64,000 nucleotides of DNA from Flaccisagitta enflata (GCA_965153355.1 OZ231126.1:23312001-23376000), one strand, 5' to 3'. Shown: positions 5,753-62,241, counted from the stretch's first letter. The notes: a model not told the origin generated them from the letters alone. Program-made: numbers and translations.

Positions 5753-5881
<129 letters not shown>

Positions 5882-7026: not shown

Positions 7027-7145
<119 letters not shown>

Positions 7146-27154: not shown

Positions 27155-27201
27155 AGAGTATGGCAAAACGCGTGACCATATCGGAACCAGAAAAGTTAAA
27201 A
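27155..27201 (+). CDS. Sip1: NHERF-like exon 4 (ESMAKRVTISEPEKLK)
   Basis: Acceptor cttttcaacag, donor AAA|GTAAGT, phase 1 to 0; keeps the frame. Confidence 0.7.
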
Positions 27202-28118
27202 GTAAGTCAACTCTTTACAGTAACTATATCAAGACTAACTGCACTGGATCCTCTGGGTCAAAACATTAGATCTTGACCAATAAACAGACATTTTGAAAAG
27301 TTAATGATTGGATACTATCGAATATGAAGAACAGTAAAAACTACTTGTAAAAGATCTGAAAAACAAAACATATAGATAGACGGACTAAAGAACTGACGAG
27401 GGGCTCGACAGACCATCTTAAGAGACAAGGAATCCTCGTCAAGTACGCATCGAAACATTTGCTTATATATCCTTCCCTTATGTTTCTACCGTTTTTACGG
27501 TGGAAGACTATAATTCGCGAATCATAAAAGATTTTTTTCACCCTGGCCAATTTGTAGCAATATGATTTACATATTCAATACTCTACAAAATGACATGCCG
27601 CGTAAAAAAAATTGAAATAAACAAATCATTCTTTTTGCTTCATTTCCTTTTATAGAACTAAATTACTGGATTCTCATCACCATAATCACCTTCACGGCTT
27701 ACTCTAGCAATCTCTCATCTCTCAACATCTTTCGGCTTTTATTTAAAACAAAAGTAGCTTCAATCATTATTTTTTCCATTTTCTCATGTTGTAAGTTCAG
27801 TTTCTTTCTATATCCTTTTTCTATCGCCAATCTTTTTTATTCTTACGCCCAATCATTGATTTTTTGCCGGTACATTATAATAAAGACAGTTCTCCCTAAC
27901 CATTTATTCATTGAATTGTCAGAGTAATAAATTTGAATTATAGTGCTGAAATTGTCTCTTCAATTATAGTGCTGAAATTGTCTCTTCAATGAAAATGCAG
28001 ATGTACACTGAAATCAATGATGGGTGTCGTTATTAATTATTCTAAGTCTAACAATCTATTGTTTCCTTATACTAGGCATTTTAACACAACACACTTACTT
28101 GCATGAAAATAGCACGTA

Positions 28119-30687: not shown

Positions 30688-32316
30688 CAAGCAGTGCCAT
30701 GATCTGGGGAATTTTTCTCCCTCCTTCTTCGCACCCCCCCACCACCCAGTTCATAACTCAACCTGAGGCCCACATCCCAGCTCCCGGCACTAAACTCAGC
30801 CTGAGGCCCAAACCTTGTGAGACTGGAATCTGGGCCTGGGGGAGGCTGGATTGTGGGGCCTGAGGTGGATTGGGCCTCAAGACTGAGATTTGGTCCTCCA
30901 GGCTGGGATATGGGCCTCCAGGCTGGATAACTCAGCCTGAGGCTGGGGGGAGGGGGGTATGAAGGGGCCGCTTCGGGGCCGCTGCCCAAAAAAGAGCGCT
31001 TTAGGTGCTTTTGTGTGTGTGGGGTGAGGATTGTGAAGTGTTGATTAGGGTTAGACACCCCTGCCCACCCGTCCGCAATATTGTGACCCCGCGTTACTTG
31101 TTTCTAATTCTCATGGGTAAATTGAAATCGATATTCTTCCCATGGTGACTGCTGTCCAATCTATGCTTTTTGGGCAGCGGTCCTGAAGGGGCCGATGACC
31201 TATGCTTTCACACATAGGGGAAATTTTTCCTTCTCCTTCTCCGTCCACCCCCTTCGAAGCTCATGTCCTGGCCTTCGGGCCCTAATCCTAGTCTTGAGGC
31301 CCAAATCTTAGTCTCGAGGCCCAAGTCCTCAGCCTCTCATGGCTCAAATCCAACTCTAGAGGCTCAAATCCCAACCTTGAGGCTCAAATCCTGGCCTAGA
31401 GGCCCATCCTAGCCCCCGAGGCTCAAAATCCCAGCCTCAAGGCCCAAATCCCAGCCTGTTACCACAAATCCCAGCCTCAAGTCTCAAATTTCAGCCTTGA
31501 TGCTCAAATCACAGCCTAAAACCTCAAATCACAGCCTCAATACTCAAATCCTAGCCTTGAGGCTCAAATTGCAGCTTCGAGGCCTCAAACACAGCGTCGA
31601 GGCTCAAATCACAGCCTTGAGGCTCAAATCAAAGCCTCATGGCCTCAATCACAGCCTTGAGGCTTAAATCTATTGATGCCTCAAATTCAATCCCTGAGCT
31701 TCATAAAATCACTACATAGGTCATCGGCTCCCTTCGGCCGCTGCCCCTCTCACCATCACACACCCATATATACTTAGTAACTTACATAGTTACTTACTTA
31801 CATAGGGGCAATGGGTACCGCTGACCATCTAACGCTTTTGCGACTATTTTTGATACATCCGTTAGAAACGCATCTCTATATTTGGTTCAGTCCAACCGTC
31901 GGTCCATCCTGCCTGAGCAAAGACTGTGTTTCTTGGTTGATTATGGCCACAGTGAGATACTTTACTGAAATGACCGACAGACATGTTTTGAGAGCCTCTT
32001 TATGTTACTATGTCGTTTCATCCGTCTGTTCCTCTTTCCGTATATGTGCAATACATGCAGAAACACAGCCCGGACACATTGTAGCACGGTCGGGCTTGTT
32101 TCTTCTTTACAGCAACTTAAAACCGAAATTCTTTCTCAGAGTGGCAGTGGTTCTAATAATTGTTTTTTTCACTTATAGCAACTTGAAATCGAGATTCCTT
32201 TTTCTAGTGGCAGTAGTTCTAATGATTGTTGTTTTTCCCTTACAGCAACTTGAAATTGAGATTCCTACTCCTAGTGGCAGCGGTCCTATTGATTGCTCTT
32301 TTTTTTTCCCTTACAG

Positions 32317-32400
32317 CAACTTGAAATCGAGATTCCTTCTCCAAGTGGCAGCGGTCCTAATGATCAGGTCACACCGCCACCGCCTTATGAAGCTTCTGTG
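32317..32400 (+). CDS. Sip1: NHERF-like exon 7, symmetric cassette (QLEIEIPSPSGSGPNDQVTPPPPYEASV)
   Basis: Acceptor ttcccttacag, donor GTG|GTGAGT, 84 nt, phase 0-0; contains a PPxY motif. Confidence 0.75.
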
Positions 32401-33324: not shown

Positions 33325-33520
33325 TAGTTGATAAATAAAGCGTCCAGTTATTTTGATATTCTACAAGCAAAAAGTGGAGACCGTGATCTTTTCAAAGCCT
33401 TGTTTACAGTCATTGAGAATTGTTCCTGGAAGCCGGATTATGTCGATTGTTTTTGTTGCAACTGAAATGAATCACCCTATTCTTATGAAACTTATCTCTT
33501 TGCGCGAATTTGTCTTTCAG

Positions 33521-34009
33521 GAAACTCCGGAGGCTTCTCCTCTTCCTTCTCCTCATCCTGGCAACTTTGCTGAGGAGGCGTCTTCCAATTTCGTCGTCAA
33601 AAAGCAGAGTCCGCCTTCAACATCTCGTGTGGAGCATCCGGAAGTGGCCGCTGCCAACAACGGCGTCAACAACGACGTCAACAACGGCGTCAACAACGGC
33701 GTCAACAACGGCGTTGACGCCGGCGTTGTAATTCCGTCGAAAAGCGCCGCAGTCAGTCGCGACAACCACGCCGCCGCCACCAACACTGCCGCGTATAATA
33801 ACCATGGCAGCAACAACAATAATAGCACCAGCGCCACCAACACCAGCAGCAACAACAATAATAATAAAAGTTTGGACGGCGAACCAGTTTTTGGACTTTC
33901 AGTGGCAGACATGCGAGCGCGTTTACAAGCGAAAAAACGAGCTGACGTAAGAGAAGCTGACAACAACAGAAATTTTAAGGAGAAATACGAAATCTTTCAA
34001 AAGTTGTGA
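33521..34009 (+). CDS. Sip1: NHERF-like terminal exon with ERM-binding tail (...LSVADMRARLQAKKR...FKEKYEIFQKL*)
   Basis: Acceptor tgtctttcag, phase 0. The C-terminus resembles the EBP50/Sip1 ERM(FERM)-binding tail. The spliced CDS totals 1335 nt (444 aa plus stop). Confidence 0.92.
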   Translation, partial: ETPEASPLPSPHPGNFAEEASSNFVVKKQSPPSTSRVEHPEVAAANNGVNNDVNNGVNNGVNNGVDAGVVIPSKSAAVSRDNHAAATNTAAYNNHGSNNNNSTSATNTSSNNNNNKSLDGEPVFGLSVADMRARLQAKKRADVREADNNRNFKEKYEIFQKL

Positions 34010-35750
34010 ATGTACGTGGGAAATGGGTGATATTGTAAGTGTCCATAACCCATGCTTAGATGAATCGCGACTTCGATCTTTTAGGCTTTGATAGAGAAAC
34101 AAGGCCAATATTTTTAAGTCGCGTGCGAGACTTACAGACTTAAAATGACTTAAAATGACTTGGAATGACTTAGATGACTTAGAGTTCTTGAGAATGACTT
34201 AGAATGACCTAATGACCAAAAAAGTAAAAGGAACCGACCAACCGATCAACCAACCAACAGACGGACAAAGCAGGGTAAAGAGTCGCGTGCACGCGACTTA
34301 AAAAGAAAATGATAAGATAGTTTCTGGCCACAATTTTTTTGTTTTTTTTTCATGAGAATTATGTCAGAACGGCTTAGTATTGATCTAATTTTACAGAACA
34401 ATGTAGCCTACATAGGTCAGTTGCAATTAATCTGAGTATGATTGTGATTAAGAATTTGAATTGGTTGGGTTTCCTCCTGAGAGACGCTGTTATACATTCG
34501 GCTTTCCCCTGAAAAATTCACACCAAAGCTGTACGGTTTCTATTTTCATTTTCTCAAAAATCATAAATCAGTTTTTTTTCCCCATGGCCTACATTGTTTG
34601 TCTAAAGATGACATTCTTTTATACAATTGTGATAATATCATTTCCTTGCGCGGTTATTTACATTAATAAGCCATGAATTTTGTTGATCATTCCATAATTT
34701 CCATTCATTGCTTCGCGAAAAGTTTGTTGATTTTTTTTCGCCATCAAATCCCTTTTTCCATATTTTAGTCATTTTTGTAAGAATTGTCTGTTTGTCAGTC
34801 TGTTTGATGATCTGACTGTGGGTCTGTAACGCACAAGGCAAAAAGTGCTAAACTCGTATACATGACGTGAGTGTGTGTGTCGGGGGGAGGGACAGTACGC
34901 CCTGCCCACTGCCCAGTGCCCACTCGTCTGCAGCAATTTTGGAACCCCGGGTTACATTTTTTTGAAAACTTTTTTCAAGGTTGCTATAAAACTAGTGACC
35001 TTAATAGAAGTTTCTTTTTAGTTGCGGACATGTAACTCTATACGAGCTGAGTGCACGAAGACGCGCATTTATGATGCTGCAGTTGAGATTATCTGTGTGT
35101 GAGTGAGCATGGGGTGAGGAAGGGTAAGGATGTGGTAAGGTGTTACATGTACCTGTCCGTCCGTCCGCAACTTTATTGTGACCCCGAGTCACTTGGTTTA
35201 TTTGAAGTTATTTCAAACCCAGGATTTCAAGGGAACTATGCCTCTGACAGTTAAATTTCCTCAGTAATGGTGAGAGTGATTATTTTTCACAAAGATAGGC
35301 TTCGCTGACGATTTTCTTTTCTTATGAAAAAAACATGTCAATTGCCCTCGCATTTTCCTATTTTTTTCCGCCCTCCAAAGATTTTCCCTACATGATTGCC
35401 CAAAGATTTTCATTTATCCTGGCATAATATATCGTCAAGTGCTTTAAGTACTTAAAGCCATTTGATGTTACTGCGATCAAAATGATTATATATTTATATA
35501 TATACACGTGATCTTTCTTCATGGTAACTATTTGTATCATTGAAACCAGTTTACTTAATGGAGATGTGTTTTAACGGTTGGCCGTTGGTAAGACTGTAGA
35601 TCTAACCAAATTTATGCGGCACATGCTACAAAAACCTATACCATAAAAAGCTCACCCGGATCTAGTTATCATACTTCATTACTCTAAACTGCTCAAATTC
35701 AAGGCTAGTTTTGCAGATTCATACCAGCTCTATCATACAAGCTCTCACTG

Positions 35751-40762: not shown

Positions 40763-43717
40763 TGACAGTCAGACAGTCAAAGAGATAGTGGACAGACTTT
40801 GGACAATCATTCTGATGTGGTAATAAACGTCGTCGGTCTAAACTCAAAGGGTAATAAAAGATCAATTTATGCCGGTCTCCTCCTCTTCATCCTCCTCCTC
40901 CGCCTCTTCATCCTCCTCTTTCTCCCCCTCCTTTTCGGCAGCGGCCCCAAAGGGACCAATGACCTTTGCTTTCACACATATGGGAGATTTTCACTCAATT
41001 TCTCCTTCTCTTTCTTCTTCTTCTCCCTCTCCATCCTGGCTTCAACGCCCAAATTCTAGCCTTCCGACTCATATCCCACCCATCTGGCTCAAACCCCAGC
41101 CTCAGTACTCAAATCCTAGCCTCAGGAACAAATTTCAGCTGCAAAGGTCAAATCCTAGCCTCAAGGCCCAAATCCCAGGCTCAAGGCTCAAATCCCAGCC
41201 TCAAAGTTCAAATCCCAAACTTTGGGCTCAAATACCAACCTCAGGGCTCAAATCCCAGCCTCCACGCTAAAATGCCAGGTATTAAGAATACACATCGGCT
41301 ACAGCATTGGTCATCGGCCCCTTCATGGCCGCTGCCCCTCTTACCACTGCATAACTTAAACAACTTAGGGGCAGCGGGTACCGCGGACCATCTGACGCTT
41401 TTGCGACTATTCTCCCTTCAACTTCCCCTCACTTCTATCCTCTCTCCCAGTTGAGTCGCTTTTTGGCCCAAGCGCGAGTTTGTAGCGAATTGCCGAACCA
41501 GCGAAAATATATTCGCGTTTTCCTACTCAGTCAAAGACGCAAACTGCGCGTTAGAAAACGAACTAACTTTACCGACTGAAGTATTTGGTCACTCTTTTGC
41601 AAATTGAGCGTCTTTTGCCGCGATCAATATGATATGATATACATTGAGAGCAATAAGGCCCAAAGAAAGAGGTTCGTTTCCAGCTTCACTGTTAACCAAA
41701 AAGAAAAAAAGTCCACTAACTCTCTGGCTCTCCGGGTATTAACTTCTGACTCTGATGAGAGAGGAATACTCAACTAAAACCCGAAACCTATAGATCTAGA
41801 GCTTTCACGTCAAATGTGATGAAAGGGAATTCATAGTCGGTTTTATCCTAAAACATTTAGCATGGAGTTTATATTCACTCCAAGCCTTGGATCATCAACT
41901 TTCAGTAAAACTGTAGAAGGTCAACTTTGCATTGGCCCTATTGATCTCGACGTACTACGAGAGGGAGTGCCCGAGGATCCGTGGGTAAGTAGGTAGGTAA
42001 GTATGAAGGTAGGTAGGTAGGTTGGCAGTAAGTTGGGTAAGTAGGTAGGTATGAGCGTCATACTGAAATGAGCATTGCACTACCGTCCATCAGCATTTTG
42101 TATTCGCATCTTATTGATTAGTTTAGATGAATTCATCTTACTCATGTAATCATGTTATTCATGTACCATTAAATGACTTTGAAGAATGGGTTTATGGAAG
42201 AGATTGTGGATTAAACGCAAGCCTCATGTAAAAATCGAACTTAACTAAAGATGGAACGATGTAATCATACTAATTGGCAAATATGATTATCAGGGAATGA
42301 TTAGTTCAATTGATGCGGTTGTCCCTGAGTCTGAGTAGGTATCAAAATGTTAACAGGTCGCCCAAGGGCAATATGTGGTCAGCGATACCCGTTGCCCTGC
42401 TTTGAGTGATTGTGAATTGGAGTGAGGGGGAGCAGGGCAGCGGCCCTAAAGGGGACGAAGTCCTGTAGAACACAGGGGGACTTTCGTTCGTCCTGCCTGA
42501 AGAAGTGGATGAGATGCTATGGAGGGCTGACTGATAGCCTTCAAGAGCCTAAACTGAGGTCTAAGAAGGCTGATGTAAGGCCTGAGATTGCCAATCGAAA
42601 GCTTGAGAGGGCTGACTTGAGGCTTGAGAGAGCTGGATTAAGGCTTGAATGGTCAGAAAGCGATAAATCGAGGCTTAGATAGCTGATTTGAGGCCTGAGA
42701 AGCCCAATTTGAGGCCTGGGTGGTCAGGTTTGAGGCCTCAGAATTTGGATTTGAGGCCTGAGAAGCCCAATTTGAGGCCTGAGAGGCCAGGTTTGAGGCC
42801 TGAGAGGTTGGATTTGAGGCCTAGGAGGCTGGATTTGAGCCCTGGGAGGCTGGATTTGAGGCTTGAGAGGCTGGATTTGAGGCTTGAGAGGCTGTATTTG
42901 CGACCTGAGAGGCCAGATTTGTGGCCTGAGGGGCCTGATGAGGGGGGGGGGGGACGAACGAACGAAGAAATGAATGGACGAACGAAAGTCCCCCTGTGTT
43001 CTACAAGACTTTGTCCCCTTCGGGGCCGCTGCCCAAAAATCGATGTATCTTAAAGAGATATTTGACAAGGACATCGTTCAAAATCAAATTTGCCAAAAAC
43101 TAACCATGGCATGTTTTGACGAAAAAACATGGTTCATTTTGCAATGGTCTCTTTTCTTCTTTTTTCTTCTTCTTTTTAGTCGCTGGGTAAGCGACTCTAT
43201 AAGAGGGTCTGAAGGTCTGTCCGTAACGCGAAATTTTGGATGACACCAAATTGGTAATTTCTGAGGATAACAGCCCCTGTCCACCCAAAATACAGCCCCT
43301 GCCAACTCGTATTACTGCCCTGCCCCTCAGTATACTGCCCCGCACACCCGCCAGCGACTGCTTATTGGCCGTGTATCCGGCCTCGTTTGCATTCTTCTCG
43401 TTTCTTGATCCATTTTCTGTTACCTTTTACTCGCAAGCGGACAAGCGAATTTTTACGTTGCTTGGTGCTGTTGTTGTTGATCTATCATTGAGCTAGTTAG
43501 CAATTTTATCATCCGATTCTTAATTAACGTAATCTTCTTTGGATTGAAGAAGCGGCAAATCTTTATGTGAGGAATTAAATGTTCTTTATCAAGAGTTAGT
43601 GGCATTGCTTCTAAATGAGGGAGGGATCAATGAAAAAAGAAAAAAGATACTAATGACCAGGGCCGTATGGCAAGGAACCGCCGGGCCGCCATAGCGGCCC
43701 CTTGTTGGGACACACTT

Positions 43718-43815
<98 letters not shown>

Positions 43816-44530
43816 CTTTCTTTTACTGATGTGCGCTAAAGATTATAATTGTCTATACATACAGTCTTACAGAGAAACAAAAATCACCAATTAGATTGAT
43901 TGAGACACATGTGTCCTCGAATCTCTGTAAGAGAGTGTGTCAGTCTGAAGGTCCATAACATATGTCAACACTCAACAATTATGCGGAAAAACATAGGACC
44001 CGCAATAGTTAACTTTAAAATAATTAAGATATTAAAATCCCCAAATACAGAAAGTTAAAAAGTACAGAGACAGAAAATCTATCATGAAAAAGCTTATTTT
44101 CACAAGAATTGCTTGAAAGAAAAAATGATGCTTTCAAGATGTTTCCATCGAGGAGTTGGTTGGTCACACTTCTCTTTTTTTATTACTCTTATTTCTTTAA
44201 GTCATTCTAGGTCATTGAAGGGTATGCATTTGAGATATCAAATGATCATTTCCAAGATCACCACGATTTTGACAATAACAATGCATGGACGAAATGATAC
44301 TGGCTCACCTAATTCAAATGTATAATCCAATTTGGTTTGTTCTTTTAGACAAACGTCCTTGGAGTTAGCACAACCGTGAAAAAAAAACTTACAATAATCG
44401 GTTTTCTTGAAAATCAAATTGTTAGATTTCTATTCCCGATGAGAAAATCCTTTGATTCAGTAATAGCTTGTTGAAGAGATGCAATCTTATTCGTAATGAC
44501 TAAGTAATTCTAAGTCATTCCAAGTCATTC

Positions 44531-44704
44531 TTAGTCATTCTTAGTAAAGTGTAAGTCTTCCTCGCGACTTAAAGGTGTATAAGTATAGTGTGTTGCAAGT
44601 ATAGGTGTTGGCCTTGTTTTTTTGTTTCTTCGATAAGTCACCGCAATGATGACTATGAGTAAAAGGACAATGGCGATGATGAATCCCAGCAGATTCCTTG
44701 GAGA

Positions 44705-44738
<34 letters not shown>

Positions 44739-44857
44739 GGAGATGTTGTTGGAGATGTTGTTGGAGTTGTTGTTGTTGTTGTTGGAGATGTTGTTGTTGT
44801 TGTTGTTGTTGTTGTTGGAGATGATGTTGGAGTTGTTGTAGTTGTTGTTTTTGGAGA

Positions 44858-44939
<82 letters not shown>

Positions 44940-45993
44940 GGAGATGTTGTTGTTGTTGTTGTTGTTATTGTTGTTGTTGGAGATGTTGTTGGAGATGTTG
45001 TTGGAGTTGTTGTTTTTGTTGTTGTTGGAGATGTTGTTGTTGTTGTTGTTGTTGTTGGAGATGTTGTTGGAGTTGTTTTAGTTGTTGTTTTTGGAGATGT
45101 TGTTGGAGTTGTTGTTGTTGTTGTTGGAGATGTTGTTGTTGTTGTTGTTGTTGTTGGAGATGTTGTTGGAGTTGTTGTTTTTGTTGTTGTTGGAGATGTT
45201 GTTGTTGTTGTTGTTGTTGGAGATGTTGTTGGAGTTGTTGGAGTTGTTGTTTTTGGAGACGTTGTTGGAGTTGTTGTTGTTGTTGTTGGAGATGTTGTTG
45301 TTGTTGTTGTTGTTGTTGGAGATGTTGTTGGAGTTGTTGTTTTTGTTGTTGTTGGAGATGTTGTTGTTGTTGTTGTTGTTGTTGGAGATGTTGTTGGAGT
45401 TGTTGTAGTTGTTGTTTTTGGAGATGTTGTTGGAGTTGTTGTTGTTGTTGTTGGAGATGTTGTTGTTGTTGTTGCTGTTGTTGGAGATGTTGTTGGAGTT
45501 GTTGTTTTTGTTGTTGTTGGAGATGTTGTTGTTGTTGTTGTTGTTGTTGTTGGAGATGTTGTTGTAGTTGTTGTTTTTGGAGATGTTGTTGGAGTTGTTG
45601 TTGTTGTTGGAGATGTTGTTGTTGTTGTTGTTGTTGTTGTTGGAGATGTTGTTGGAGTTGTCGAAACAGACGATGAAGATAAGGGAGGAGGCGCTGATGA
45701 AGAGGAGGCTCCTGGATTGTCACGTTTACGGAAATGGGTTGTCAAAGCAGAAACTAAAGATGAGGGGGGAGACGCTGATACAGGTGAGTTGCCTTGAGGG
45801 GGGTGCAAAGTTGTAGCAGATGTGGACCGAAAGTTGCCATCCTTGTCAATTCTGGAAGTTGAAGTTGAAGTTGAAGTTGAAGTTGAAGTTGAAGTTGAAG
45901 TTGAAGATATGGGAGGAGGTGGTAATGAAGAGGAGGCTCCTGGCTTGTCATCATGAGGAAAATGCTCCCATTTGTATTTGTTGTAGAAATAAT
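44531..45993 (-). CDS. Mucin-like (Thr/Ser/Pro) single-pass membrane protein, terminal exon; paralogous TM segment shared with the sushi gene
   Basis: Acceptor tctctctcctctcag (phase 1). One frame stays open through a unique N-terminal part, about 950 nt of TTPTTSP repeats, the TM segment PRNLLGFIIAIVLLLIVIIAVTYRRNK and a short tail. Upstream exons are unresolved. Confidence 0.65.
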
Positions 45994-46164
45994 CTGAGAG
46001 GAGAGAGAAACAATTGAACAACATTAATCAGGTTCATGTGACCATGTCCATCCAACGATGTGCCTCTCTGTCTTCCAAACATACTTTATTTTTCTTTACA
46101 TTTTCATAATTGTTTTGCCCCTGCCTATTGACCAAATCAGTATCAGTATTCTATGCCTGTCCAC

Positions 46165-46258
46165 CTGCACATGCCAAAGGCTTTGACAAGTTCAGGAAAA
46201 ATGATTGATGTCGTGGATATTGTACATCAATCCTGTGTCCCTTTGTTTGTTTTTCTGT
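46165..46258 (-). CDS. Candidate upstream exon of the mucin-like gene (TEKQTKGHRIDVQYPRHQSFFLNLSKPLACA)
   Basis: The phase-1 donor CAG|GTGGAC fits the phase-1 acceptor at 45993; its own acceptor is weak. Confidence 0.2.
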
Positions 46259-46278
46259 CTGTACAAATGTTTGTCTCA

Positions 46279-46379
<101 letters not shown>

Positions 46380-49149
46380 ATTAAAACCTAAGTGTTCACG
46401 TCAAGTTGGCACGGTACTGGGCCCCTGAGCATGTTTTTCTGGCTGTCAGTCTGTCTAACTTTCTTCTCATTCTCCTTTTTGGGCAGCGGCCCCGAAGGGG
46501 CCGATGACCTATGCTTTCACACAGGAGAAATTTCTCCTTCTTCTTCTCCAGTGTACCCCCCCCCCTCTCCCCAGCCTCGAGGCTCAATTTCCAGCCTCAA
46601 GGCTCAAATCTCAGTCTCAAGGCTCAAATCCTAGCTTTAAGGCTCAAATCCCAGCCTTGAGGCTTCAATCCAAGCCTTGAGGCTCAAATCCCAGCTTGGA
46701 GGAGGAGCGTAACTATGTGTGACAGCTCTCTGATGCTCCCAGCTTGGAGGAGGAGCGTAACTATGTGTGACAGCTCTCTGATGCTCCCTAGCAACCGCCA
46801 AACCAGCGATATTCTTACAGAACATACTGTGGGAAAGTTGTGGCAAATTTTATTTCAAAAAGTGTTCCCTAAAAAAATTTCTCAAAATATTGATACTTAA
46901 GCGTGAATACATGAAAATGTGTTTCCATAGCAACCAACACCCATGGGCAACAAAGCATCCTTTTATTAGTCTATATTCCAAATATCAGTCTCTTAAGTAA
47001 ATTTGTCTTCCTGTAATGAACTCCCCCGTATTTCCAAGTCTAGACGACATCTACTGTACTCAAATTGAAAGATGTCCAGGTCATTGATCAATGAGCACAG
47101 TATGCGATTGATATCTTTTCAATTCCACGGCTGTTGGGGGAAACAATGATTTTCCTCTTTGTGACTTACCTACTATTACTAACGTTATGAGAACAAAAAT
47201 CCAACGAAAAGCAGATTTTTTCGTGAGTTCCATTATGGATTCCCCACGCGATCACTTGCGATGTTTGTCCTAATTGGTAAGATTCAAAGAATTAAAATAT
47301 CTCAATTCCACGGCTTTGGAATAAACAAGGCCGGATACACGGCTACCCTAGTCGCGTGCGGGTGGGCAGGGGCAGTATTTGAGTTTCTAGAGCGTTTTGG
47401 CAAGTGCAGTGAAGCCAAAGACCACAAAAATATAAAAAAAGTAAAATGGGGACCGACCAACCGACCAACCGACCAACCGACCGACCGACCAACGGACGGA
47501 CAAAGCGGGGTGTAGAGTCGCGTAGCACGTGACTAAAAAGAATTCACCCCAATTTTTTTCACAGGAGTTCTCAGAATGATGTGGAATCAGAAAATTTGTT
47601 TTTTGAATGAAAATGGCATTTGTAATTCATAACAAAGCCGGATACATGGCTACCCTTGTCGCGCTGCGGGTGGGCAGGAGCAGTGCTGGAGGTGACTAGG
47701 GCATCTGGGCAGGAACTGTGAGCTCAAAAATCTAAAAAACGCCAAAAAAGTTAAAAAGGGACCGACCAACCGACAGATGGACCAATCAATGGACCGACAT
47801 AGGGGGTGTAGAGTCGCGTAGCACGCAATTAAAAACACAATAGAATGAATCTATTCAAGATTTTTTTGATACTGATAATGAAATTCATTTGTTAGTAGCG
47901 TGCTGTTGGTCCGTCAGTCAGTTGGTTGGTTGGTCGGTTGATTGGTTGGTTGATTGGCTGGTTGGTCCCCTATTCACTTTTTTGGCGTTTTCAAGCTTTT
48001 TGAGCTTACTGCTCCTGACCAAATGCTCTAGTGGCTTTCTTCAGCACTGCCCCTGCCCACCCACACGCAACTGGGGTAACCATGTATCCGGCCTTGTTTA
48101 CTTCAAAAATACTATGCTGATTCAATTTTTAGTGTTTCACTTATTTTTGGCCATTTTTGAAAATTTGCACTTAAATCTTATTTATGTATTGTGGTTTTTC
48201 ATTTTTTTACTTATACAGTCAATGCTCTAACTAACATGTCTGTTAGGAAATTTACCTCTGAAAAAAAGATTGCAAAATATTCAAAACGAAATATCATGTA
48301 AGTCCCTTGAAGTTTGCTAGAATTATTTTTGAATATAACTCACAAGTTTCCTTTAATAGATTAATGAAATTTAAACCAAACTTCTACTTTACCCATGGAC
48401 CTAGTTTCTACTGCTTTTTTGAAAGAAGTTTACAAACTTAGCTTATTTTCAGTTTAAGTCTTTAAAAGAAATAATGAAAATATGCAAATAAACACTGTTT
48501 TGAGAGCAAAAAAAGTGATTTTCAGTACTAGGTCAGATACATGGCTACCCCAGTGACGTGCGGGTGGGCAGGAGCCGCATTTGAGGTCACCAGAGCCTTT
48601 GGGCAGGAGCAGTGGGGGCAGGGGCAGCGGATTGGTGGGCAGGGGCAGCCAATTCCCATCCACACCTAACGCCCCTCCCAACACCCCTTCCGACACAGAC
48701 ACTTACACAAAAAGCTTCTACAACACTTGTTTGTCCACTTTTCGACTCACACTCAAGTACCGACGGACCAATGGACGGACTGACGGCCCAATGGGCGGAC
48801 AAAGCCTCTTATAGAGTTGCTTGTCTGCAACTTTAAACAAGAAAACATATGACTGACTGACAGACCAAGAAATCAACCAGCTGATGTTTTTGATTTTATT
48901 GGCCAATGATTGACTAACATAAACAACACACTTTAATTCAACTTCTTTTTAAGGACCCCTGTGCAAAAAAAATGGGATGGGTTTTTAGGTGCGCCATAGC
49001 ACCTCTATAACTAGCTCTGTCTGTTGGTTGGTCGGTCGGTCGGTCGGTCGGTCGGTCACGCTCGAGTTGAAAATCTCGAAAAGAAGCAAAAATCACTTGA
49101 AATGATTCAGAAATCAATTGAAAACTCATTACGTTCATTTCAATCACTA

Positions 49150-50110
49150 GAATTCATTCATTCATTCATTCATTCATTCATTCATTCATTCCTTCACTCC
49201 ATTCATTCATTTCATTCATTCATTTCATTCAATCATTCCATTCATTCATTTCATTCATTCATTTCATTCATTCATTTCATTCAATCATTTCATTCAATCA
49301 TTTCATTCAATCATTTCATTCAATCATTTCATTCATTCATTTCATTCATTCATTTTATTCCATTCATTCATTCATTTCATTCATTCATTTTATTCCACTC
49401 ATTCATTCATTTCATTCATTCATTCATTCATTCATTCATTTCATTCATTCATTCATTTCATTCATTCATTCATTTCATTCATTCATTCATTTCATCCATT
49501 CATTTCATTCATTCATTTCATTCATTAATTTCATTCATTTCATTCATTCATTCATTTCATTCATTCATTTCATTCATTTCATTCATTTCATTCATTTCAT
49601 TCATTCATTCATTTCGATCATTCATTTCATTCATTCATTTCATTCTTTCATTTCATTCATTCATTTCATTCATTCATTTCATTCATTCATTTCATTCATT
49701 CATTTCATTCATTTCATTCATTCATTTCATTCATTCATTTCATTCATTCATTTCATTCATTCATTCATTTCATTCATTCATTTCATTCATTCATTTCATT
49801 CATTTCATTCATTCATTCATTTCATTCATTTCATTCATTTCATTCATTTCATTCATTTCATTCATTCATTCATTTCGATCATTCATTTCATTTCATTCAT
49901 TTCATTCATTCATTTCATTCATTTCATTCATTCATTTCATTCATTCATTTCATTCATTCATTCATTTCATTCATTCATTCATTTCATTCATTCATTCATT
50001 CATTCATTCATTCATTCATTCATTCATTCATTTCATTCATTTCATTCATCTCATTCATCTCATTCCTTTCATTCATCTCATTCATTTCATTCATCTCATT
50101 CATTCATTCA
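49150..50110 (+). repeat. (TTCA/TTTCA)n satellite
   Basis: Directly visible; lies inside a hairpin-family element. Confidence 0.95.
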
Positions 50111-50566: not shown

Positions 50567-50704
50567 GAATAAATAACGCCCGGCGCACCGTCTTGGCCCG
50601 TGTATCCGGCCTTGTTTTTTTTTTTTTTGGTTTATTTTTGTATTGTTTTTTTTTTTTTTTTTTTTTTTTTTTTGAGATATTTTCAAATTTTTTACAAAAA
50701 AACT

Positions 50705-51421
50705 AAGGCATGTTTTGACAAAAAACTTAGTTCGTTCTGCAGTAGTCTCTTTTCTTCTTTTTCTTCTTTTTTTTTCTTTTTTTGCAATCTTCTCGGTTCT
50801 TAATCCATTTTCTGTTACCTTTTACTCGCAAGCGGACCGGTGACTTTTTGCGTTGCTGTGCTGGTTGGTGGCTTGGTGCAGTTGTTGTTGATTTATCATT
50901 GAGCTAGTTTGCAATTTTATCATCCGATTCTTAACAAACTTTTCTATGGATTGAAGAAGCGGCAAATTTTGATGCGAGGAGCTAAAATATTCTTGATCAA
51001 GAGTTAATGGCATTGTTTCTAAATGAGAGAGGGATCAGTAAAAAAGGAACAAGATACTAATGATTAGGCTGTACAATAGAATCACGTGCGCCCTCGAATC
51101 TCTGTAAGGCGGTGTGTCAGTCTGAAGGTCCATAAGACCATCATGCATGTCAACACCCAACAATTATGCGGAAAAACATAGCACCCGCGATAGTTAATTT
51201 TAACTAGCCAGTAAAATAGTCAAAATTATCAAAATCCTGACAGTTAATTCCAGGACAACAGCTAGTTAAACCAGGGAAAATGAGTAAGAATCCCCAATTT
51301 TTCCTCAAATACGGAAATTTAAAAAGTACTGCAAGAAACAGAAAATCTATCATGAAAATACTTATCTTTAAAAGCATTGCTTGAAAGAAAAAATCATTCT
51401 ACCAAAACGTTGCCATCGAGT
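50705..51421. repeat. Local segmental duplication (paralog at about 43105-44152)
   Basis: Colinear blocks such as CCATTTTCTGTTACCTTTTACTCGCAAGCGGAC, CAACAATTATGCGGAAAAACATAG and CAGAAAATCTATCATGAAAA occur in both copies, separated by different insertions. Confidence 0.9.
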
Positions 51422-53061
51422 AAATGAAAATTTTGACTATCATATCAATTTACAAGCGGAAATGACAAGTAGCTATTGACGAGTTGATCATGGCTCGGCA
51501 CTGGGAGGATTGTGTTACGTAACTAATAATTAGTATGATGAATAAAAAAAAGCCAAAATACCAAAAGATATACTTCACTGACAAACATTTACATATTGCA
51601 TCATACACCAACTCGACTTTGAAAACTAAAAAGCTCATAGCTATGATGAGACGCTTCATCAAAAAAAAAAGTTACGCGGGGTCACAATATCGGTACGGAC
51701 GGGTGGGAAGGGGCATCCAACCCCCGTCCACACCCCATGCCCCCCCCCCCCCACCAACACACATACGACGTCAAATCTGCCAGGGAAAAATGAACTGCTT
51801 CACCCCACTTTTGCATCAATAATGGACTAATCATCCATCCACAAATGTTTTCATTGCTCAAGTTGTCATTGGATACACTTGTTATGCATGTCTGTTTCAG
51901 ATTTTACGCTTTCAGTTGCCTTTTGATAAGCAATTCTCTCGGCAAATGGCAAGAATATGAAGATTTTTCGTAAAATTTTGTTGACATTTTTTTCTATTTT
52001 CTGAGGTCAAAATCATAAGGAAGCCACAACCAAAAAGAAATTGGCATTTTCAAAAACATAGATCTCTCTAAAAAGGATTTGGGAAGAGAACTATGTTCTT
52101 TGTTTTTTCATTTTTTCATTGTCTATGCAAACTTATAATTTCGACCAACCCCTTGTCAGTGACAAAAAAGAAATTTTTCTAGATTTTCAGTAAATCTTCC
52201 TCAATAACATAGGCTAAATCTTAGTCTCTTGCTGAATGGATGCAAATTTTGCTTTCAAATATCATGCATGTCTTATCTCAATCATTTTATTCACATGATT
52301 TTCTATTTTCACTCATTTATGTTTTCTATTTTGACCCATTTTGATACCCTAAATGTTGGCTTCGTGGGCACGCTTTCATTCCTAAACTGGTCGCCTAAGG
52401 GCAATATCTCGTCAGCGAAACCCGTTGCCCTGCTCTGCATGATGGTGAAATGGAATGAGAGGAAGCAGGACAGCGGCCCCAAAGGGGACGAAGTCCACTA
52501 GAACACAGGGGACTTTCGTTCGTTTGTTCATTCGTTTGTCAGTCTGTCCGTTCCCCCCAGGCCCTCTCAGGCCTTTAATCTGCCCTCCCAGGCCTGAAAT
52601 CTAACCTTTTAGGCCTGAAATCTGCCCTCTCAGGCCTGAAATCTGTGGTAGCAGATTTAAGGCTCGAGAGGGCAGATTTGATGAACTTTTTAATCCTTTG
52701 ATATACAGACTTGGGATTGGTCTAGAATGAAAGATAATTCAAAAATCTTCAAAATTACTTTGTTTGATAATCGCCCATGAGATTATTTCAAGCCATTTCA
52801 TTAGATGCAGAAATGATACAGTAGTTTTCCAATTTAGTATTTTATCATGTGCTCTAAATAGTGGTTGACTGTGACAGACTGCAACTTTTAAACGACATAC
52901 AGACATGGGATTGGTCTCGAATGATGGAAAATTCAAAAATCTTCAAAATCATTTTAATGGAGAAAAGTTTTAACAATTTTTTTTCAGTCATTTCTATCAA
53001 CCATTGATGAGCTGTGTTTTTTTTTCGCGTAGTATCATTATTGTTGAAATAGCTCTCGATA

Positions 53062-53653
53062 TCACATGAGTACCTCATAATCAGGAAGCTCTACCCTGTC
53101 GTCAGAACCCGGCCTATTCACAAAACGCACGATGGTCGATTTGATTTTTTCTTTGTTTCTTCGATAAGTCACCCCAGTGACGACTATGAGTAAAAGGAAA
53201 ATGGCAATAATGAATCCCAGCAGATTCCTTGGGAAAGAATCTAAGGGAGCGCAACTGTAATCATATTTGGTATAATTTCCCCCCTGTTTTTCCTGCATCG
53301 GAACAATATTTCCATTACTGCACCAGACGTGGATTGTTTTTAGGCCCTCTATCATTTCATATCCACTTTTGCAACTTTTTTCACATTTTGATTCTATTTC
53401 GTTGACCCTCTCGCATTTCCACGCAACGTTGGCATCCACATCCGTAGGTGGACACGGAGTGCGGATCGCACATCTGTGTTCCTCACGCCATTTTCCAGTT
53501 TTGTCGCATTGGAAGACAGACTTTGCATTCGATCCTTCGAGACATGGTCGAGAACACTCAGCGTTGAAGTGATAACCTGAACAGTTCCAAAAGGGACTGG
53601 TTCCGTTTTCTTTTCTACCGGCATTGAGATCTGAGCATGAAATTGATGAAGAG
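53062..53653 (-). CDS. Sushi protein terminal exon: two CCP domains, TM helix (NLLGFIIAIFLLLIVVTGVTY), basic stop-transfer RRNK and a tail ending DYEVLM*
   Basis: Acceptor ttttcttttcccccag, phase 2; open frame to the stop at 53062; Cys/Trp spacing of selectin-type sushi repeats. Confidence 0.88.
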
Positions 53654-54348: not shown

Positions 54349-56016
54349 GCTCTTTTTGGGCAGCTGCTTCAAACCTGGTCTTTCAGACCTCAAACCAGCC
54401 ATCTAAGCCCCTATTTTATGCCTCATGTCAGCCCTCTCAAGCTTCCAATTGGCATTCTCAGGCCTTACATCAGCCTTCTTAGACCTCAGTTTAGGCTCTT
54501 GAAGGCCTTCAGTCAGCCCTCTACAGCATCTCATCCACTTCAGGCAAGTCCCCCTGTGTTCTACAGGACTTCATCCCCTTTGGGGCTGCTGCCCTGCTTC
54601 CCCTCACTCCAATTCACAATCACGCAAAGCAGGTCAACAGGTATCAATGACCATATATTGCCCTTGGGCGACCTGTTGTTTGTCCGTGCGTCCCCCCAAG
54701 GCCTTCTCAGCCCTGAAATCAGCTCTCTCAGAACTAAAATCTACCCTCCTCTCAGGCCTGAAATCTGCCCTCTCAGGCCATGAATCTGCCCTCTCAGGCC
54801 TGAAATCAGTCAACTTAGGCCCAAAATCTTCCCTCTCAGATTCTAGGTCTGAGAGGGAAGATTTCAGGCCTGAGAGGGTAGATTTAAGGCCTGAGAGGGC
54901 GGAGTTCAGAGCTGAGAGGGTCTGAGGGGCGGACAGACAGATGGACGAAAGAATGGACGCACAAATGAAAGTCCCCCTGTATTCCAAAGGACTTTGTCTC
55001 CTTCAGGGCCGCTGCCCTGCTTCCCCCATTCCAATTCAGAATCATGCAAAGCAGGGCAACGGGTATCGCTGACCAGATATTGCCCTACATATTGCCCTTG
55101 ACCATGCAGAAGCCCTCTGGGCCCCCTGAGGCCCAGGCTCCTATAATTTGTATAGGGTGTATAGGCCTCTACAGGCCTCTGCTGCTCTCACTCTACTTCT
55201 TCAGCTGATCACAATACACGTCAGGTATCGCTGACCATATGCAATCGTTGGATGACTTGCTTATTGCTGCCCCTGCCCACCAGCACGCAACTAGGTAGCT
55301 ATGTCTCTGGCCTTATTCTTAAGCAAAATAAGGATTCATCGCATTCCTCCTCTGGAGTATGCTAGTGGTTTTCAGTCGCATGCTACGCAACTCTGCAACC
55401 CGGTCTATCCATCCAACTATGGGGCTTTTGGGCGTGCCGCTCCTGCCCAAATGCTCCCCTGACCTCAAATATGGCCCCTGACCAGCCACACGCAACTGGA
55501 GTTAGTTGAGGATTGGCTTCTCTAAAAAAGGCTTTGTCCATCCATCTGTCTGTCCATCAGTCTGTGTGCACAAGTGGAGAAAACAGGCATTTCCGCTCCT
55601 GCCCACCCGTCTGCGACATGCATTGGTTGTGTATCCAGCTTTGTTTTTTTTCTTTGTCAAAACAAATCCATTTCTTGACAATACAAGAATGGGTGCTTCA
55701 AGAACAATCTTTTTTTGCATTTACCAAACGCTAATAAGTGGTGTTTCCTTACTTCACATTTTGGTGTTTATGAAATGCCAAACATTGTGTTTCTAAAATG
55801 CCAAAAACGGTGTTTCTGAAATGCCAAAAATGGCCTTTCTGAAATGCAAAAAATGGCATTTCTGAAACGCCTAAAATGGCGTAATTGAAACACTAAAAAT
55901 GATGTAAATGAAACGCCAAAAATGGTATTTCTAAAATGCCAAAAGTGCCGTTTCTGAAACGCCAAAAAGGGGGTTTCTGAAACACTAAATGCTGTTGTTG
56001 CATAACTTAACATTTA

Positions 56017-58045: not shown

Positions 58046-58464
58046 TATGCCTTTCAGAAACGCAAAAAGCGGGCCTTTTGATACAAGAAAATAGTAGCTA
58101 CATTTAGTTTTTTTAGCACCAGTATGCCAGCTGTATGAAACGCCCCCAAAAATGTGTTTCAAAACTGCAGCATGCCATGAGTGTTGTAACACCAAAAAAA
58201 GATCGTTTTGTAACGGCCCTTAATGGCTGTGTCATAACGATATTTTTCATGGGTTAATGACAGATTTTCTGTGTCACTAACTTCAAAAATGGCCGTTTTG
58301 AGACAACCCCAAAGCACGTGACGGACTATCTCGCACTTGTACAAGTGCATTAGGAGTTAGGATTTTTTTTCTTTAGACCACCACAATAATGGAATCTTAT
58401 GAAAAGAAAATAGCCAGCACGTTTTAATACCACTCTCAGTATTAGTGTCCTCAAAAAAGGATTC

Positions 58465-58640
58465 CTGACACATTTTTCATGGGGATAAATCCAGCTACCG
58501 TCATCAGAGCAAGTTGCCAGAATTTCCTTCTTTGCGATAAATTTTTGGTGGCAAATCAATTTACATTGGTATCCGGTTAGAATCCCTTCCGATCCGCACT
58601 GACACCTCCAATAACCGTTCTTTCCTACAACTGTGGCAGC
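58465..58640 (-). CDS. Sushi protein exon (AATVVGKNGYWRCQCGSEGILTGYQCKLICHQKFIAKKEILATCSDDGSWIYPHEKCV)
   Basis: Acceptor attttctcag, phase 0; remainder of the third CCP domain. The 3' boundary is uncertain (see the GA donor finding). Confidence 0.8.
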
Positions 58641-60233
58641 CTGAGAAAATATGATTTTTTTAGCAAGTTAGTGCAGGAATTACGAATTATATTTCCTATT
58701 TAGCAAAGATTTGATGTACAGGTGCAGATGGACACTGTCCATTGGACAGGGGGAGTGTAGCAGAAAGAGTACTTGAGATTAATGTAGGGACAGTGATGGC
58801 AAAACTACCTAAAATGTAGTGGAATTTGTTTGGCCAGATGGACAGATGGACGAATGTGAGTAATAGAAATACTGTCAGGCCATGGAAATGGTTCATAGGT
58901 GAGAGGCAAGAGATCAGAGGTCTGATATAAGATTAAACCTCGGGGGTCGCTCAGGGTATTCCCAGATTGCTTGAGGTTGCAATCCCCAAGCAACCCCAAA
59001 TGAACGAAAGGCAACCCTAAGGCAATCCCGAGGCAACCCCAGGCAACGCTGAGAAATTCCCAGAGTACAAACATAACAGACAAACCTCAAGACAATATTC
59101 TAAGAAAAACAATGAATATAATATAATTATAACAAGGCCAGATACACGGCTACCCTAGTAGCGTGCGGGTGGGCAGGAGCAGTGCTAGAGAAGGTAACTA
59201 GGGCATCTGGGCAGGAGCCATATGCTCAGAAAGCTCAAAAAAGCCGAAAAAATTAATAGTCGCAAAAGCGTTAGATGATCAGCGGTACCTGTGCCCTGCT
59301 TAAGTAGGTTGTGGTAGAAGTTGAGTGGGGAGCAGGTCCCAAAGGGGTCGATGACCTGTACTTTCACACATATGGGGAATTTATTTCTCCTTCTCCTTCT
59401 TCTTCTCCTTCTCCTTCTCCTTCTCCTCCTCCGCACCCCCTCTCCCCCAAGCCTCAAGGCCCATATCTCAGCCTCGAGGCTCATATCCCAGCATCAAGGC
59501 CCAAATCCCAGTCTTGAGGCCCAAATCCCTTGAGGCTGGAATTAGGGCCTTAGGGTTGGGATTTGGGCCTCAAGACTGGGATCTGGGCCCCGAGGCTGGG
59601 ATATGGGCCTCGAGGTTGAGAAATGGGCCTCGAGGCTTGGGGGAGGGGGGGGGGGGTACAAAGGAGGAGAAGGAGGAGAAGAAGAAGGAGAAGGAGGAGA
59701 AAATTCCCCATATGTGTGAAAGCATAGGTCATCGACCCCTTTGGGGCTGCTGCCCAAAAGGGGACCAACCAACCGACCAACCCACCAACCCACCAACCGA
59801 CTGACTGACGGACCAACATAGCGGGGTGTAGAGTCGCGTAGCACGCGACTAACAACTGCAAAATCAAAAACAGTAACGTCAACTCCAAGCAACTCCGAGG
59901 TAACCCCGAGGTAATCCGGAGGCAGCCCCTTGAGTAGCCGAGTAGTCCGAGACAACCCGAGCAATCCTGAGAGTTGCGGGCCGAGATAACCCAAAGCAAC
60001 CCCGAGCAATCCCGAGACAACCCAGAGCAACCCCAAGCAATCTGGAGCAACCCCCGGGTTTTATCTTGAAGTTATATACTACGCGTTTCCCAGTGTCACA
60101 CAGGTTTGAAAGTATCAACTATTGTATTTTCCCTTGAGTAAACAAAGAATTTTACTGTACTTAATGTAATGATTTTCGTTTCCTTTTATCATTCTTCTAT
60201 CTTCTACTTATGATTTCATAAGAATGCAATCAC

Positions 60234-60319
60234 CGGTGGCATTTTGCAGGTTACGATTTCACAGTTTTCTTTCGGTTCGGACCATATCCGGTTGGCTTGA
60301 CACGTCCGAGATACACCGT
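60234..60319 (-). CDS. Sushi protein, remainder of the interrupted exon (SRTCQANRIWSEPKENCEIVTCKMPP)
   Basis: Removing the MITE plus one TA restores GGA GAC ATA TCT CGG ACG TGT (GDISRTC). Donor CCG|GTGATT, phase 0. Confidence 0.8.
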
Positions 60320-61075
60320 CTTTAAATCGAAATGGCAAATAGTAAACCTTTGTAGCTCCAAAACTACTAGCCTGAAAGCCTTCAAATTTTCAGTGAATGT
60401 TGGTAACAACTGACCATTTTGTCATGCCAAAACTCAGATTTCAATATTGAATAGTTTGGGGGTCATTAAAGCATTGAATAAGCCATCAATTTCATGGAAA
60501 AAATCAATTTCTCCTTGCTACCCTTAGAAGAATCTTTTTCTTCATTGATTTTTTCCTGGTTAAGCAAGCTTGGACCCTGGGGTTGGTCTTAAAAGAAGAG
60601 TAACAAATCATGAATATAAGTTCTGCTTAAAAATTTCATCATTTTATTGTATTTATGAAGATTTGAATGATTTTCAAATGATTGACATTCTGGATTTTAG
60701 CAATGATTGTCAAAAACCAATGATAACCTCAAAGTATTTCTAACTTTTTTCAACTTTTTTTGGTAAATGTGTAGTCTTTGAAAAATTTCCTATCATTTGA
60801 GACCAACCCCGGAGTTCTAGCTCAATTTCTTTGACATCTGTATATGGATAAAGACAAGTCTTCTCAAATAAAACAAGAAAAAAAGATTAAGCCTTGAAAA
60901 TTTGGCCTATTCCGTTTATTTTACTGACTCCAAACTATTCAGAATGAAAATCTTGGTTTTTGCATGATAAAATGGTCACTTGTTACCAACCTTCACTGAA
61001 AATTTGAAGGCCTCTGGGCTAGTGGTTTTGGAGCTACAAAGGTTTACTATTTGCCATTTCGATTTAGATACGGTG
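60314..61075. mobile_element. Tc1/mariner-type MITE with long TIRs, inserted in a coding exon
   Basis: TIR CACCGT...TAAATCGAAATGGCAAATAGTAAACCTTTGTAGCTCCAAAAC extends about 150 bp at both ends; TA at 60312-60313 and 61076-61077. Confidence 0.93.
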
Positions 61076-61250
61076 TATGTCTCCTGTTCTCCTATGAATT
61101 CCTCTCCAAGGAGGGCAAATCCACGAACAATTGGATTTGAATTTGTTATCTTGCGTACAAGAGGAATTGGCCGGTATCTCATTGGCAGGACAGGATACTG
61201 GTTTGCAGACTACGTCCGTTGAAGTCCATGTCCGATTCGATTGACAGAAG
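61072..61250 (-). CDS. Sushi protein exon (FCQSNRTWTSTDVVCKPVSCPANEIPANSSCTQDNKFKSNCSWICPPWRGIHRRTGDI), cut by a MITE
   Basis: Acceptor ttttactgcaacag, phase 2, matches the previous donor; C...W....C CCP pattern. The frame runs into the MITE at the TA (61076-61077). The 61072 end assumes the proposed MITE-internal donor. Confidence 0.8.
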
Positions 61251-61309
61251 CTGTTGCAGTAAAAACTAAAAAGTCATTGCGATTCTTGCACAGTGCACAA
61301 AACACTCTC

Positions 61310-61469
<160 letters not shown>

Positions 61470-61499
61470 GCTTCTGCGCCAATATGTACATATGTTTAC

Positions 61500-61704
61500 C
61501 TTTCAGAAATTGTTCCATTTGGCAAAAAATATCCATCGTCGCATTTGAATTTGCAAGTTGTGTTGATCAGGGAAGTTGTATTGATCAGGGAAGTAGTGTT
61601 GATCAGGGAAGTAGTGTTGATCAGGAAATGTTCGTTGGTGCAATTCCACTGTCCGTTAGAAACAGGAAACGCTTGTCCAATTTCTACGCATACATCCCAA
61701 TCAC
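61500..61704 (-). CDS. Sushi/CCP membrane protein, first recognisable exon (DWDVCVEIGQAFPVSNGQWNCTNEHF(LINTTS)3LINTTCKFKCDDGYFLPNGTISE)
   Basis: Minus-strand acceptor cttaag, donor AG|GTAAAC, phase 1 to 2; CCP motifs NG.W.C and C.F.C..GY. Confidence 0.85.
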
Positions 61705-62241
61705 CTTAAGTCACAATTAAGGAGAAAGATATCTCTGTGTTCAATATTTGTCTCTACTGTGTCAGAGACATAATGTTTTATGAGGCGTTTGAGGAAGTTT
61801 GAAGGCAGAATGAGACTACGCATGAAATTAATAGCTAAGAAAGAGCTAATTCTCTTCTTTCAGATGACGCCAAGCAGAATTTGTGTGACCGATAGTTTTG
61901 GAGCTATGATTTTTTAAATCTTTTTTTATTTTTTCACATTTTTCCCAAAATCAAGGAATCGAGTAAGCTGAAGTCATTAAACTTTGATATGTCCGAGGTG
62001 ATGATTGTGCATCCTGGCAGCCCAGTCACTCTCTCATTTAAACTCTGGACTCTAGGAGAGGCATTGTCCGTCAGTCTATCCATTGGTCTGTTGGTCCGTC
62101 TGTCCGTCCAAGTGGAAAAGTGGAAAAACAAGCAGTCTTGATGCTTGTGTGTGGGGGTTGGGGTTGGGGTGTGGATGGGGGTTGGATGCCTCTGTCCACC
62201 TATCCGCAACAATATTGTAACCCCGGGTTACATGAGAGAAG

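Follow-up and report, generated by a model that had tools for sequence, protein, structure and literature searches.

The question raised by this locus of Flaccisagitta enflata is whether a long open frame that reads like a membrane-tethered mucin is a working gene or the by-product of a duplication and of the repeats that now surround it. The frame lies in a stretch of 64,000 nucleotides (GCA_965153355.1 OZ231126.1:23312001-23376000; here called the window, with all positions counted from its first letter), in which introns are present and microsatellites are dense. It runs from stop to stop over 44531-46027 on the minus strand, comprises 498 codons and joins a Ser/Pro segment, an (ACA)n array, a transmembrane (TM) block shared with a neighbouring sushi gene and a tail derived from a dispersed repeat. 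A preliminary description of the window had taken these four parts for one mucin-like membrane gene of chimeric origin; all of them lie in a single open frame where it had placed them, and the origin from a microsatellite, a duplicated TM segment and a repeat end is upheld and, through a colinear duplication around the TM block, sharpened. As to function, our analysis tips towards the locus being a partial copy of the sushi gene's 3' end that arose in tandem and is decaying, and not a working gene.

The case for duplication starts from the TM block. Over 44621-44701, the copy differs from the sushi gene at 53152-53232 by 6 mismatches in 81 nucleotides (nt), two synonymous and four non-synonymous, with the same frame in both copies, exactly as the preliminary description had it. 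BLAST extends the match to 88 nt at 91% identity (44614-44701 against 53145-53232), and this paralogy delimits the TM-coding block of the minus-strand frame (PRNLLGF...YRRNKK). Two probes from the block match only these two places in the window, where shuffles expect 0, and the word depth of the block in genomic reads is that of single-copy DNA; an exact 23-nt probe common to both TM blocks found 0 loci among metagenome contigs. In addition, BLAST detects four colinear blocks over 43084-44152, at 78-82% identity including gaps, that are homologous to DNA downstream of the terminal exon of the sushi gene: 43084-43177, 43386-43661, 43899-44058 and 44055-44152 correspond to 50683-50774, 50781-51068, 51076-51247 and 51319-51420, respectively. 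With the TM block included, five blocks share the same order and orientation at 78-91% identity (43084-44701 against 50683-53232), from which we infer that the 3' end of the sushi gene was copied as one segment and that the TM block is no isolated island. The copy lies ~8.5 kb downstream of its parent on the same strand. Its duplicated flanks carry 88 substitutions at 621 aligned sites (14%), so that the duplication is not very recent; of the youth that had been claimed for the locus, the part that concerns the array, whose longest pure run is (ACA)27, stands, and the part that concerns the duplication does not.

The parent is the terminal exon of the sushi gene (53062-53653, minus strand), which encodes two 6-Cys sushi-like modules, a TM helix and a conserved cytoplasmic tail, and which scores 19.2 bits for Pfam Sushi (PF00084) against a cut-off of 20.7. 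Upstream of it on the same strand, over 58350-61705, sushi-like exons (open frames 58350-58667, 61064-61273 and 61496-61705) make up a tentative gene model; they fall below the cut-off for Sushi (E 0.011-0.013) and give weak tblastn matches. A HMMER scan with the parent exon returned 15 proteins, and a search limited to proteins of near length returned 0. A 97-residue open reading frame (ORF) 99% identical to the parent exon represents, together with four cluster mates, five alleles of that exon. Four divergent relatives from marine metagenomes (P0002, P0004, P0005 and P0006; 27-35% identity) are multi-sushi proteins, with Sushi E values of 1e-10 to 4e-18, and end in a TM helix of the same type and, behind it, a conserved cytoplasmic motif that the parent has too. 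This tail motif, N-K-x-K/R/H-I-D/K-S-T-I/V ... D/E-R-x-E-I/L, is present in the four relatives and in all five parent alleles, and the linkers of the relatives are ~5-20 residues long, with no Ser/Thr/Pro stalk.

Measured against this family, the copy retains the helix and little else. In alignment it conforms to the family's TM type, G-F-x-x-A...I/T-Y-x-R/K-N-K, and P0002 matches 44621-44689 by tblastn with 70% identity over 23 residues. The conserved cytoplasmic motif was not found in the copy, the tail of which diverges completely after RRNKK; tblastn with six relatives matched the TM helix of the copy as well as the parent exon and found no sushi exon between 44.7 and 53 kb; and the 498-residue frame has no Pfam Sushi match, its sole match being a sub-threshold one to RIFIN over the TM region. 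At codon 53199-53201, the parent in the window has Phe where the five other parent alleles and the duplicate (44668) have Val. Given the Val in those five alleles, one of the six TM mismatches is a polymorphism of the parent, with the Phe in the window as the derived state.

Repeats directly adjoin the TM block on both sides. On the 3' side, the cytoplasmic tail of the frame (44531-44619, minus strand; ~29 codons and the stop) is, from ~44619 to the stop, the terminal part of a dispersed repeat, and here the preliminary description was confirmed on three counts: the window contains 10 and 11 occurrences of two terminal motifs of the repeat, where 0.54 and 0.65 are expected, the copies align with one another, and genomic word depth in the bin 44435-44639 reaches ~845,000, against ~65-100 in single-copy bins (~10,000-fold). 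The repeat part of the tail contains a (CTAAGTCATT)n decamer array, a hairpin-like CGCGAC motif and the TTGGCCTTGTTT end. DNA contigs that stem from copies of the repeat elsewhere in the genome break at 44619/44623, and it is at this boundary (44619-44623) that the TM homology starts. As judged from the limits of homology and from word depth, the repeat-derived stretch between the homology blocks measures ~470 nt (44153-44623, with a blurred left end), and its counterpart in the parent is ~1.7 kb long (51421-53144) and takes in the conserved tail together with the first part of the 3' untranslated region (UTR). Since this stretch is repeat-derived, the same holds for the stop and tail of the frame and for the candidate AATAAA that follows 347 nt past the stop (44179-44184, minus strand); from 43000 up to the stop, the minus strand has no other AATAAA and no ATTAAA. 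A search for inverted repeats around 44153-44623 gave weak pairs only.

The repeat itself belongs to a dispersed, non-autonomous family, perhaps MITE- or Helitron-like, with members at 3440-3650, 18049-18222, 34097-34306, 44153-44623, 56201, 62350-62390 and 63867. Its hallmarks are a near-palindromic GTCGCG...CGCGAC hairpin motif and a AAACAAGGCCAA / TTGGCCTTGTTT end, and it carries internal microsatellites, namely tetramers of the GGTC/GACC type and the CTAAGTCATT decamer array.

On the 5' side, no homology to the parent survives upstream of the TM block, and the array starts one codon before the Pro-Arg that both copies share. Its last unit, TCT CCA, occupies the place of TCT TTC CCA in the parent, and these six letters suggest that the array may have been seeded by the exon's own juxtamembrane Ser-Pro codons. 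The (ACA)n/(GTT)n array (44702-45661, minus strand) has 320 codons, as delimited by Tandem Repeats Finder (TRF) and by codon count: 215 ACA, 43 CCA, 29 TCT, 19 ACT, 10 AAA and four singletons, which give 235 Thr, 43 Pro, 30 Ser and 10 Lys. According to TRF, its period is 12 with 0% indels, with a higher-order period of 99 nt; blocks such as T8-SP, T6-P-TT-SP and K-T6-P-TT-SP combine into larger units of 99 and 66 nt. Every Pro of the array is encoded by CCA and 215 of the 235 Thr codons are ACA, without synonymous diversity. That ACA, CCA and TCT are used almost to the exclusion of other codons shows that a few variants were amplified recently and that this is no old coding sequence.

That the frame is open across the array follows from the nature of the repeat and is no evidence of coding. 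Over 44705-45661, the three minus-strand frames contain 0, 1 and 1 stops and the three plus-strand frames 1, 0 and 4, and on the opposite strand of the array a Val-rich frame of 386 codons is open as well. Indels between units are all multiples of three, as slippage of a 3-nt unit predicts; because such a unit cannot shift the frame, the absence of frameshifts in the array is mechanical, and because ACA-based repeats are also free of stops, the frame of the TM block continues through the array automatically.

Further 5', the frame enters a low-copy Ser/Pro-rich segment of 110 codons (332 nt; 45662-45993, minus strand), recognised from its sequence, TRF and word depth, so that beyond the array the frame is open for 110 codons on the 5' side and for 57 codons on the 3' side. 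The segment has 0, 2 and 5 stops in its three minus-strand frames and holds an (AACTTC)8.7 hexamer array at 45855-45906 as well as an internal duplication of 77 nt (45888-45964 against 45660-45736; 78%) in the same reading frame. Pfam has no family for it, and its word depth is near single-copy in the bin 45665-45869 and a few-fold higher in the bin 45870-46074, which contains the hexamer array. At its 5' limit, the sequence reads as a candidate 3' splice site (45994-46013, minus strand), with a polypyrimidine tract followed by AG at 45995-45994. Read from 45991, the exon would consist of 52.5% Thr, 12.8% Pro and 12.6% Ser. The sole Met of the mucin-like frame is its codon 2 and is followed by a hydrophobic stretch that we judged by eye to be weak.

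Expression was sought in one polyA RNA-seq run of the same organism (12.2 million records, ~6% of the run, without a positive control from the parent exon). Depth was 0 in all 11 bins over 43410-45664, that is, in the mappable 3' flank, tail and TM block, with the array skipped. In the two bins over 45665-46074 it was 0.3-1.75, from partially matching reads only, and 666 of the 669 placed reads fit in part and piled up on dispersed repeats or on the hexamer array. Neither a joint nor a loose end was seen at 45993 in this library. The transcription across 44531-45993 on which the preliminary description had let its gene depend thus came out as zero depth at the TM block and tail and as partial reads alone over the Ser/Pro segment. 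Searched against a set of 5.8 billion proteins, at near length and shorter, the TM block and tail together gave 0 matches, a null that is no proof of absence, as the records of this organism resemble short genomic contigs and gene callers may skip the frame.

Taken together, these observations show that a segment with the end of the parent's last exon and the DNA downstream of it was copied to a place ~8.5 kb downstream on the same strand, and that just 88 nt of coding sequence, those of the TM helix, can still be aligned. A dispersed repeat, 3' of the helix, occupies the position of the family's conserved cytoplasmic tail and of the first part of the 3' UTR, and 5' of the helix the two sushi modules of the parent have their counterpart in a (GTT)n/(ACA)n array. 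In the course of events that we tend to favour, the array would have grown in situ by slippage and by unequal exchange of 12-, 66- and 99-nt units. As such, the 498-codon mucin-like frame would be mainly a by-product of composition, presumably untranslated, and at most raw material for a future exon.

The alternative that survives best is that the exon is real and specific to the lineage, and that it codes for a mucin-like stalk tethered to the membrane (type I), serving either the sushi gene, as a downstream alternative to its last exon, or a separate young gene, as its main exon; we take this possibility seriously while considering it the less probable. Its product is predicted to consist of a Ser/Pro linker, an array of ~320 T/S/P residues expected to be heavily O-glycosylated, the TM helix and a short repeat-derived tail. 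In a fuller version, which we put forward more tentatively, the locus would be a membrane mucin at birth: an in-frame trinucleotide array, grown out of the exon's own juxtamembrane Ser-Pro codons, would have replaced the ectodomain of a duplicated sushi last exon, a mobile element would have contributed the tail, the stop and the polyadenylation signal, and the exon would now be spliced via 45993 to yield a ~490-residue O-glycosylated stalk on a TM anchor.

Several observations argue for such an exon and weigh against decay. The 498-codon frame passes through both non-array flanks of the array, on the same strand as the parent gene and downstream of it, and an AATAAA follows its stop. At the 5' end of the frame, a strong candidate acceptor lies 34 nt after the upstream stop, only 17 acceptors of this kind (at least 17 pyrimidines in 20, then YAG) exist on the minus strand of the 64 kb, and the TM frame stays open through the 332-nt 5' flank, as it does in only 302 of 5000 dinucleotide shuffles (~6%); these figures for acceptor strength and flank openness are post hoc, and the local minus strand is pyrimidine-rich, which favours both. 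For comparison, the T-frame ORFs of the three other GTT arrays of the window, at 5753-5885, 7007-7149 and 26926-27087, have just 61, 90 and 82 codons and end 2-22 codons from the array. The translated composition in Pro, Thr and Ser (PTS) lies within the mucin-domain criteria quoted in PMC9417175. A precedent is provided by CD46/MCP, a membrane protein of the sushi family with a Ser/Thr/Pro (STP)-rich region and alternatively spliced tails (PMC2118878, PMC5064401). Lastly, the zero RNA depth is absence of evidence, coming from one library without a positive control.

Allelic sequences speak for such an exon as well, within limits. Of 24 listed sequencing runs, 23 share some words with the locus; the reads and contigs placed on 43000-49140 came from runs of the same organism and from one marine metagenome run. 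Three haplotypes that differ strongly at 45934-45978 all keep the frame and the length, one of them showing 14 substitutions and indels of +2, -1 and -1 and another two substitutions. This comparison covers the Ser/Pro part, outside the array for which the preliminary description had named frameshifting indels as a refutation. Each of the differences is a replacement or an in-frame indel; against a coding role, all allelic differences seen in the first 40 codons are non-synonymous or indels. The cluster at 45934-45978, for its part, looks less like point mutations than like the insertion of a hexamer unit coupled to a 12-nt deletion.

A similar ambiguity attaches to the TM helix, which is intact and hydrophobic in the copy and has residues of ancestral appearance. 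At three adjacent codons that differ non-synonymously between the copies, the duplicate agrees with one distant relative and is similar to the others, which suggests that the TM changes fell on the branch of the parent. Accordingly counted, at most two changes fell on the branch of the copy against 5.7 expected (Poisson P 0.07; suggestive only), and this, too, speaks for the exon. Compared with the flanks, the TM block has diverged at 8 of 88 sites against 88 of 621 (binomial P 0.11), and 5-6 differences per 81 nt are seen in it where 7.2 would be expected if the parent alone were constrained. Constraint on the TM helix of the copy was considered and, at P values of 0.11 and 0.07, rejected as unproven.

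A further point against a mucin exon attached to the sushi gene is splicing phase. An exon beginning at the candidate acceptor would start at 45993, the position at which the preliminary description had ended its element, and would be in phase 1, as is every other AG that we checked by eye in the Ser/Pro segment. The acceptor of the parent exon (exon start 53653) is in phase 2, and the one intron of the sushi gene that can be read with confidence, from ~61.5 to 61.25 kb, is in phase 2 at donor and acceptor. As the phases of the two acceptors differ, the copy cannot simply substitute for the parent exon, and the alternative terminal exon that had been proposed for the sushi gene does not fit in this respect. 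The gene model was built by eye and with simple site scores, without an exon identified directly upstream of the parent exon, and leaves room for a phase-1 donor elsewhere in the partly read gene. Between 46 and 53 kb, neither an upstream exon nor a signal peptide was identified from frames, reads and tblastn. Together with the lack of RNA over the mappable parts in one library, the lack of a similar protein, the loss of the conserved cytoplasmic motif and the mechanical preservation of the frame in the array, the phase difference and the missing 5' parts leave the young gene or alternative terminal exon of the preliminary description unsupported by the RNA, protein, motif, sushi-exon and phase tests.

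It is also conceivable, albeit improbable, that the locus is transcribed and not translated as a mucin. The sushi gene might be read through into it or possess an extended 3' UTR or non-coding tail, or a last exon of ~13 codons might give a truncated, secreted sushi protein. The copy lies on the same strand as the parent, 7 kb downstream of its stop, behind a strong acceptor, and a phase-2 donor joined at 45993 would run into a stop after ~13 codons, as counted by eye; against this, the one RNA library has depth 0 at the TM block, tail and 3' flank and no loose end at 45993.

An assembly artefact that joined unrelated repeats is the least credible explanation by far: long arrays are hard to assemble and none of the listed contigs spans the whole stretch, but a 494-letter contig of an independent DNA run, X1, lies on 44512-44695 with 5 differences and, as its record coordinates imply, continues for 310 letters towards the array, so that the junction of tail and TM block is no artefact, a contig from a marine metagenome (X2) is identical over 44516-44650, and contigs of X1 and X5 cover 45876-46267.

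Other features of the window lie outside this argument. Between duplicate and parent, an (ATTC)n array of ~222 units with a 13-nt higher-order period occupies 49152-50110. Arrays of 20-21-nt units (GCCCTCTCAGGCCTGAAATCT and relatives, and CCCAGCCTCGAGGCTCAAAT) occur at 16808-16959, 42685-42934, 52561-52645 and 54701-54921, among others; they belong to dispersed elements of very high copy number, which polyA RNA reads match partially, for example at 46485-46689 and 47305-47509. On the plus strand, open frames are found at 26662-27276 and 33335-34009, the first of which is followed by the degenerate GTT array at 26926-27087; they may resemble part of a PDZ domain and the C-terminal end of an NHERF/EBP50-like scaffold protein, and Pfam has no family for either. 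Inside this plus-strand gene region, 32096-32364 consists of four tandem units of 71 nt, each with a pyrimidine tract and AG resembling an acceptor.

How does the copy compare with known systems? With the proteins of the parent's own family (P0002, P0004, P0005 and P0006) it shares a TM helix that aligns with theirs, and it differs from them in having neither a sushi module nor the conserved tail motif. In CD46, the short STP exons sit between the sushi modules and the TM segment of one transcript. The likeness to CD46 is that of a sushi membrane gene associated with an STP-rich juxtamembrane segment and with alternative C-terminal ends, a likeness of architecture for which no homology is claimed, whereas the array of the copy lies in a separate, downstream, exon-like unit with a TM segment of its own.

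Another parallel may be the process named 'mucinization', in which, according to Pajic et al. (2022), a precursor that is not a mucin gains exonic tandem repeats rich in Pro, Thr and Ser; the precursors treated there are secreted proline-rich proteins with demonstrated expression, and one example has repeat units of 39 nt (PMC9417175). The likeness lies in a PTS-rich array of near-identical units inside a pre-existing coding exon, the non-repeat end of which is homologous to a relative that is not a mucin. Here, in contrast, a sushi receptor supplied the precursor, namely its TM end, and the candidate exon is known from its sequence alone, the unit is a trinucleotide microsatellite with higher-order structure, and the sushi part was replaced, not supplemented. 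If the frame is used, a single locus would record nearly all the steps by which an exon is born, namely a duplication, the expansion of a microsatellite into a glycosylated stalk and the acquisition of a tail and 3' end from a mobile element, and 'mucinization' would extend to a membrane receptor and to a marine invertebrate. If it is unused, which we think likelier, the locus calls for caution in annotation: arrays of the ACA type keep adjoining coding remnants in frame and free of stops, and because they keep the frame they can produce long and convincing mucin-like membrane proteins on paper, while frame-preserving variation in length among alleles of such arrays is no evidence of selection.

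Under the favoured reading, that of a decaying partial duplicate, the copy resembles partial tandem gene duplicates and gene relics that have been eroded by growing microsatellites and by deletions associated with transposons. Like these, it comprises a 3' end only, is colinear with its parent and lies beside it on the same strand; like these, it lacks conserved parts (ectodomain, cytoplasmic motif and beginning of the 3' UTR) and has repeats at both break points. Unlike most of them, it retains an open frame of 498 codons with a good acceptor at its start.

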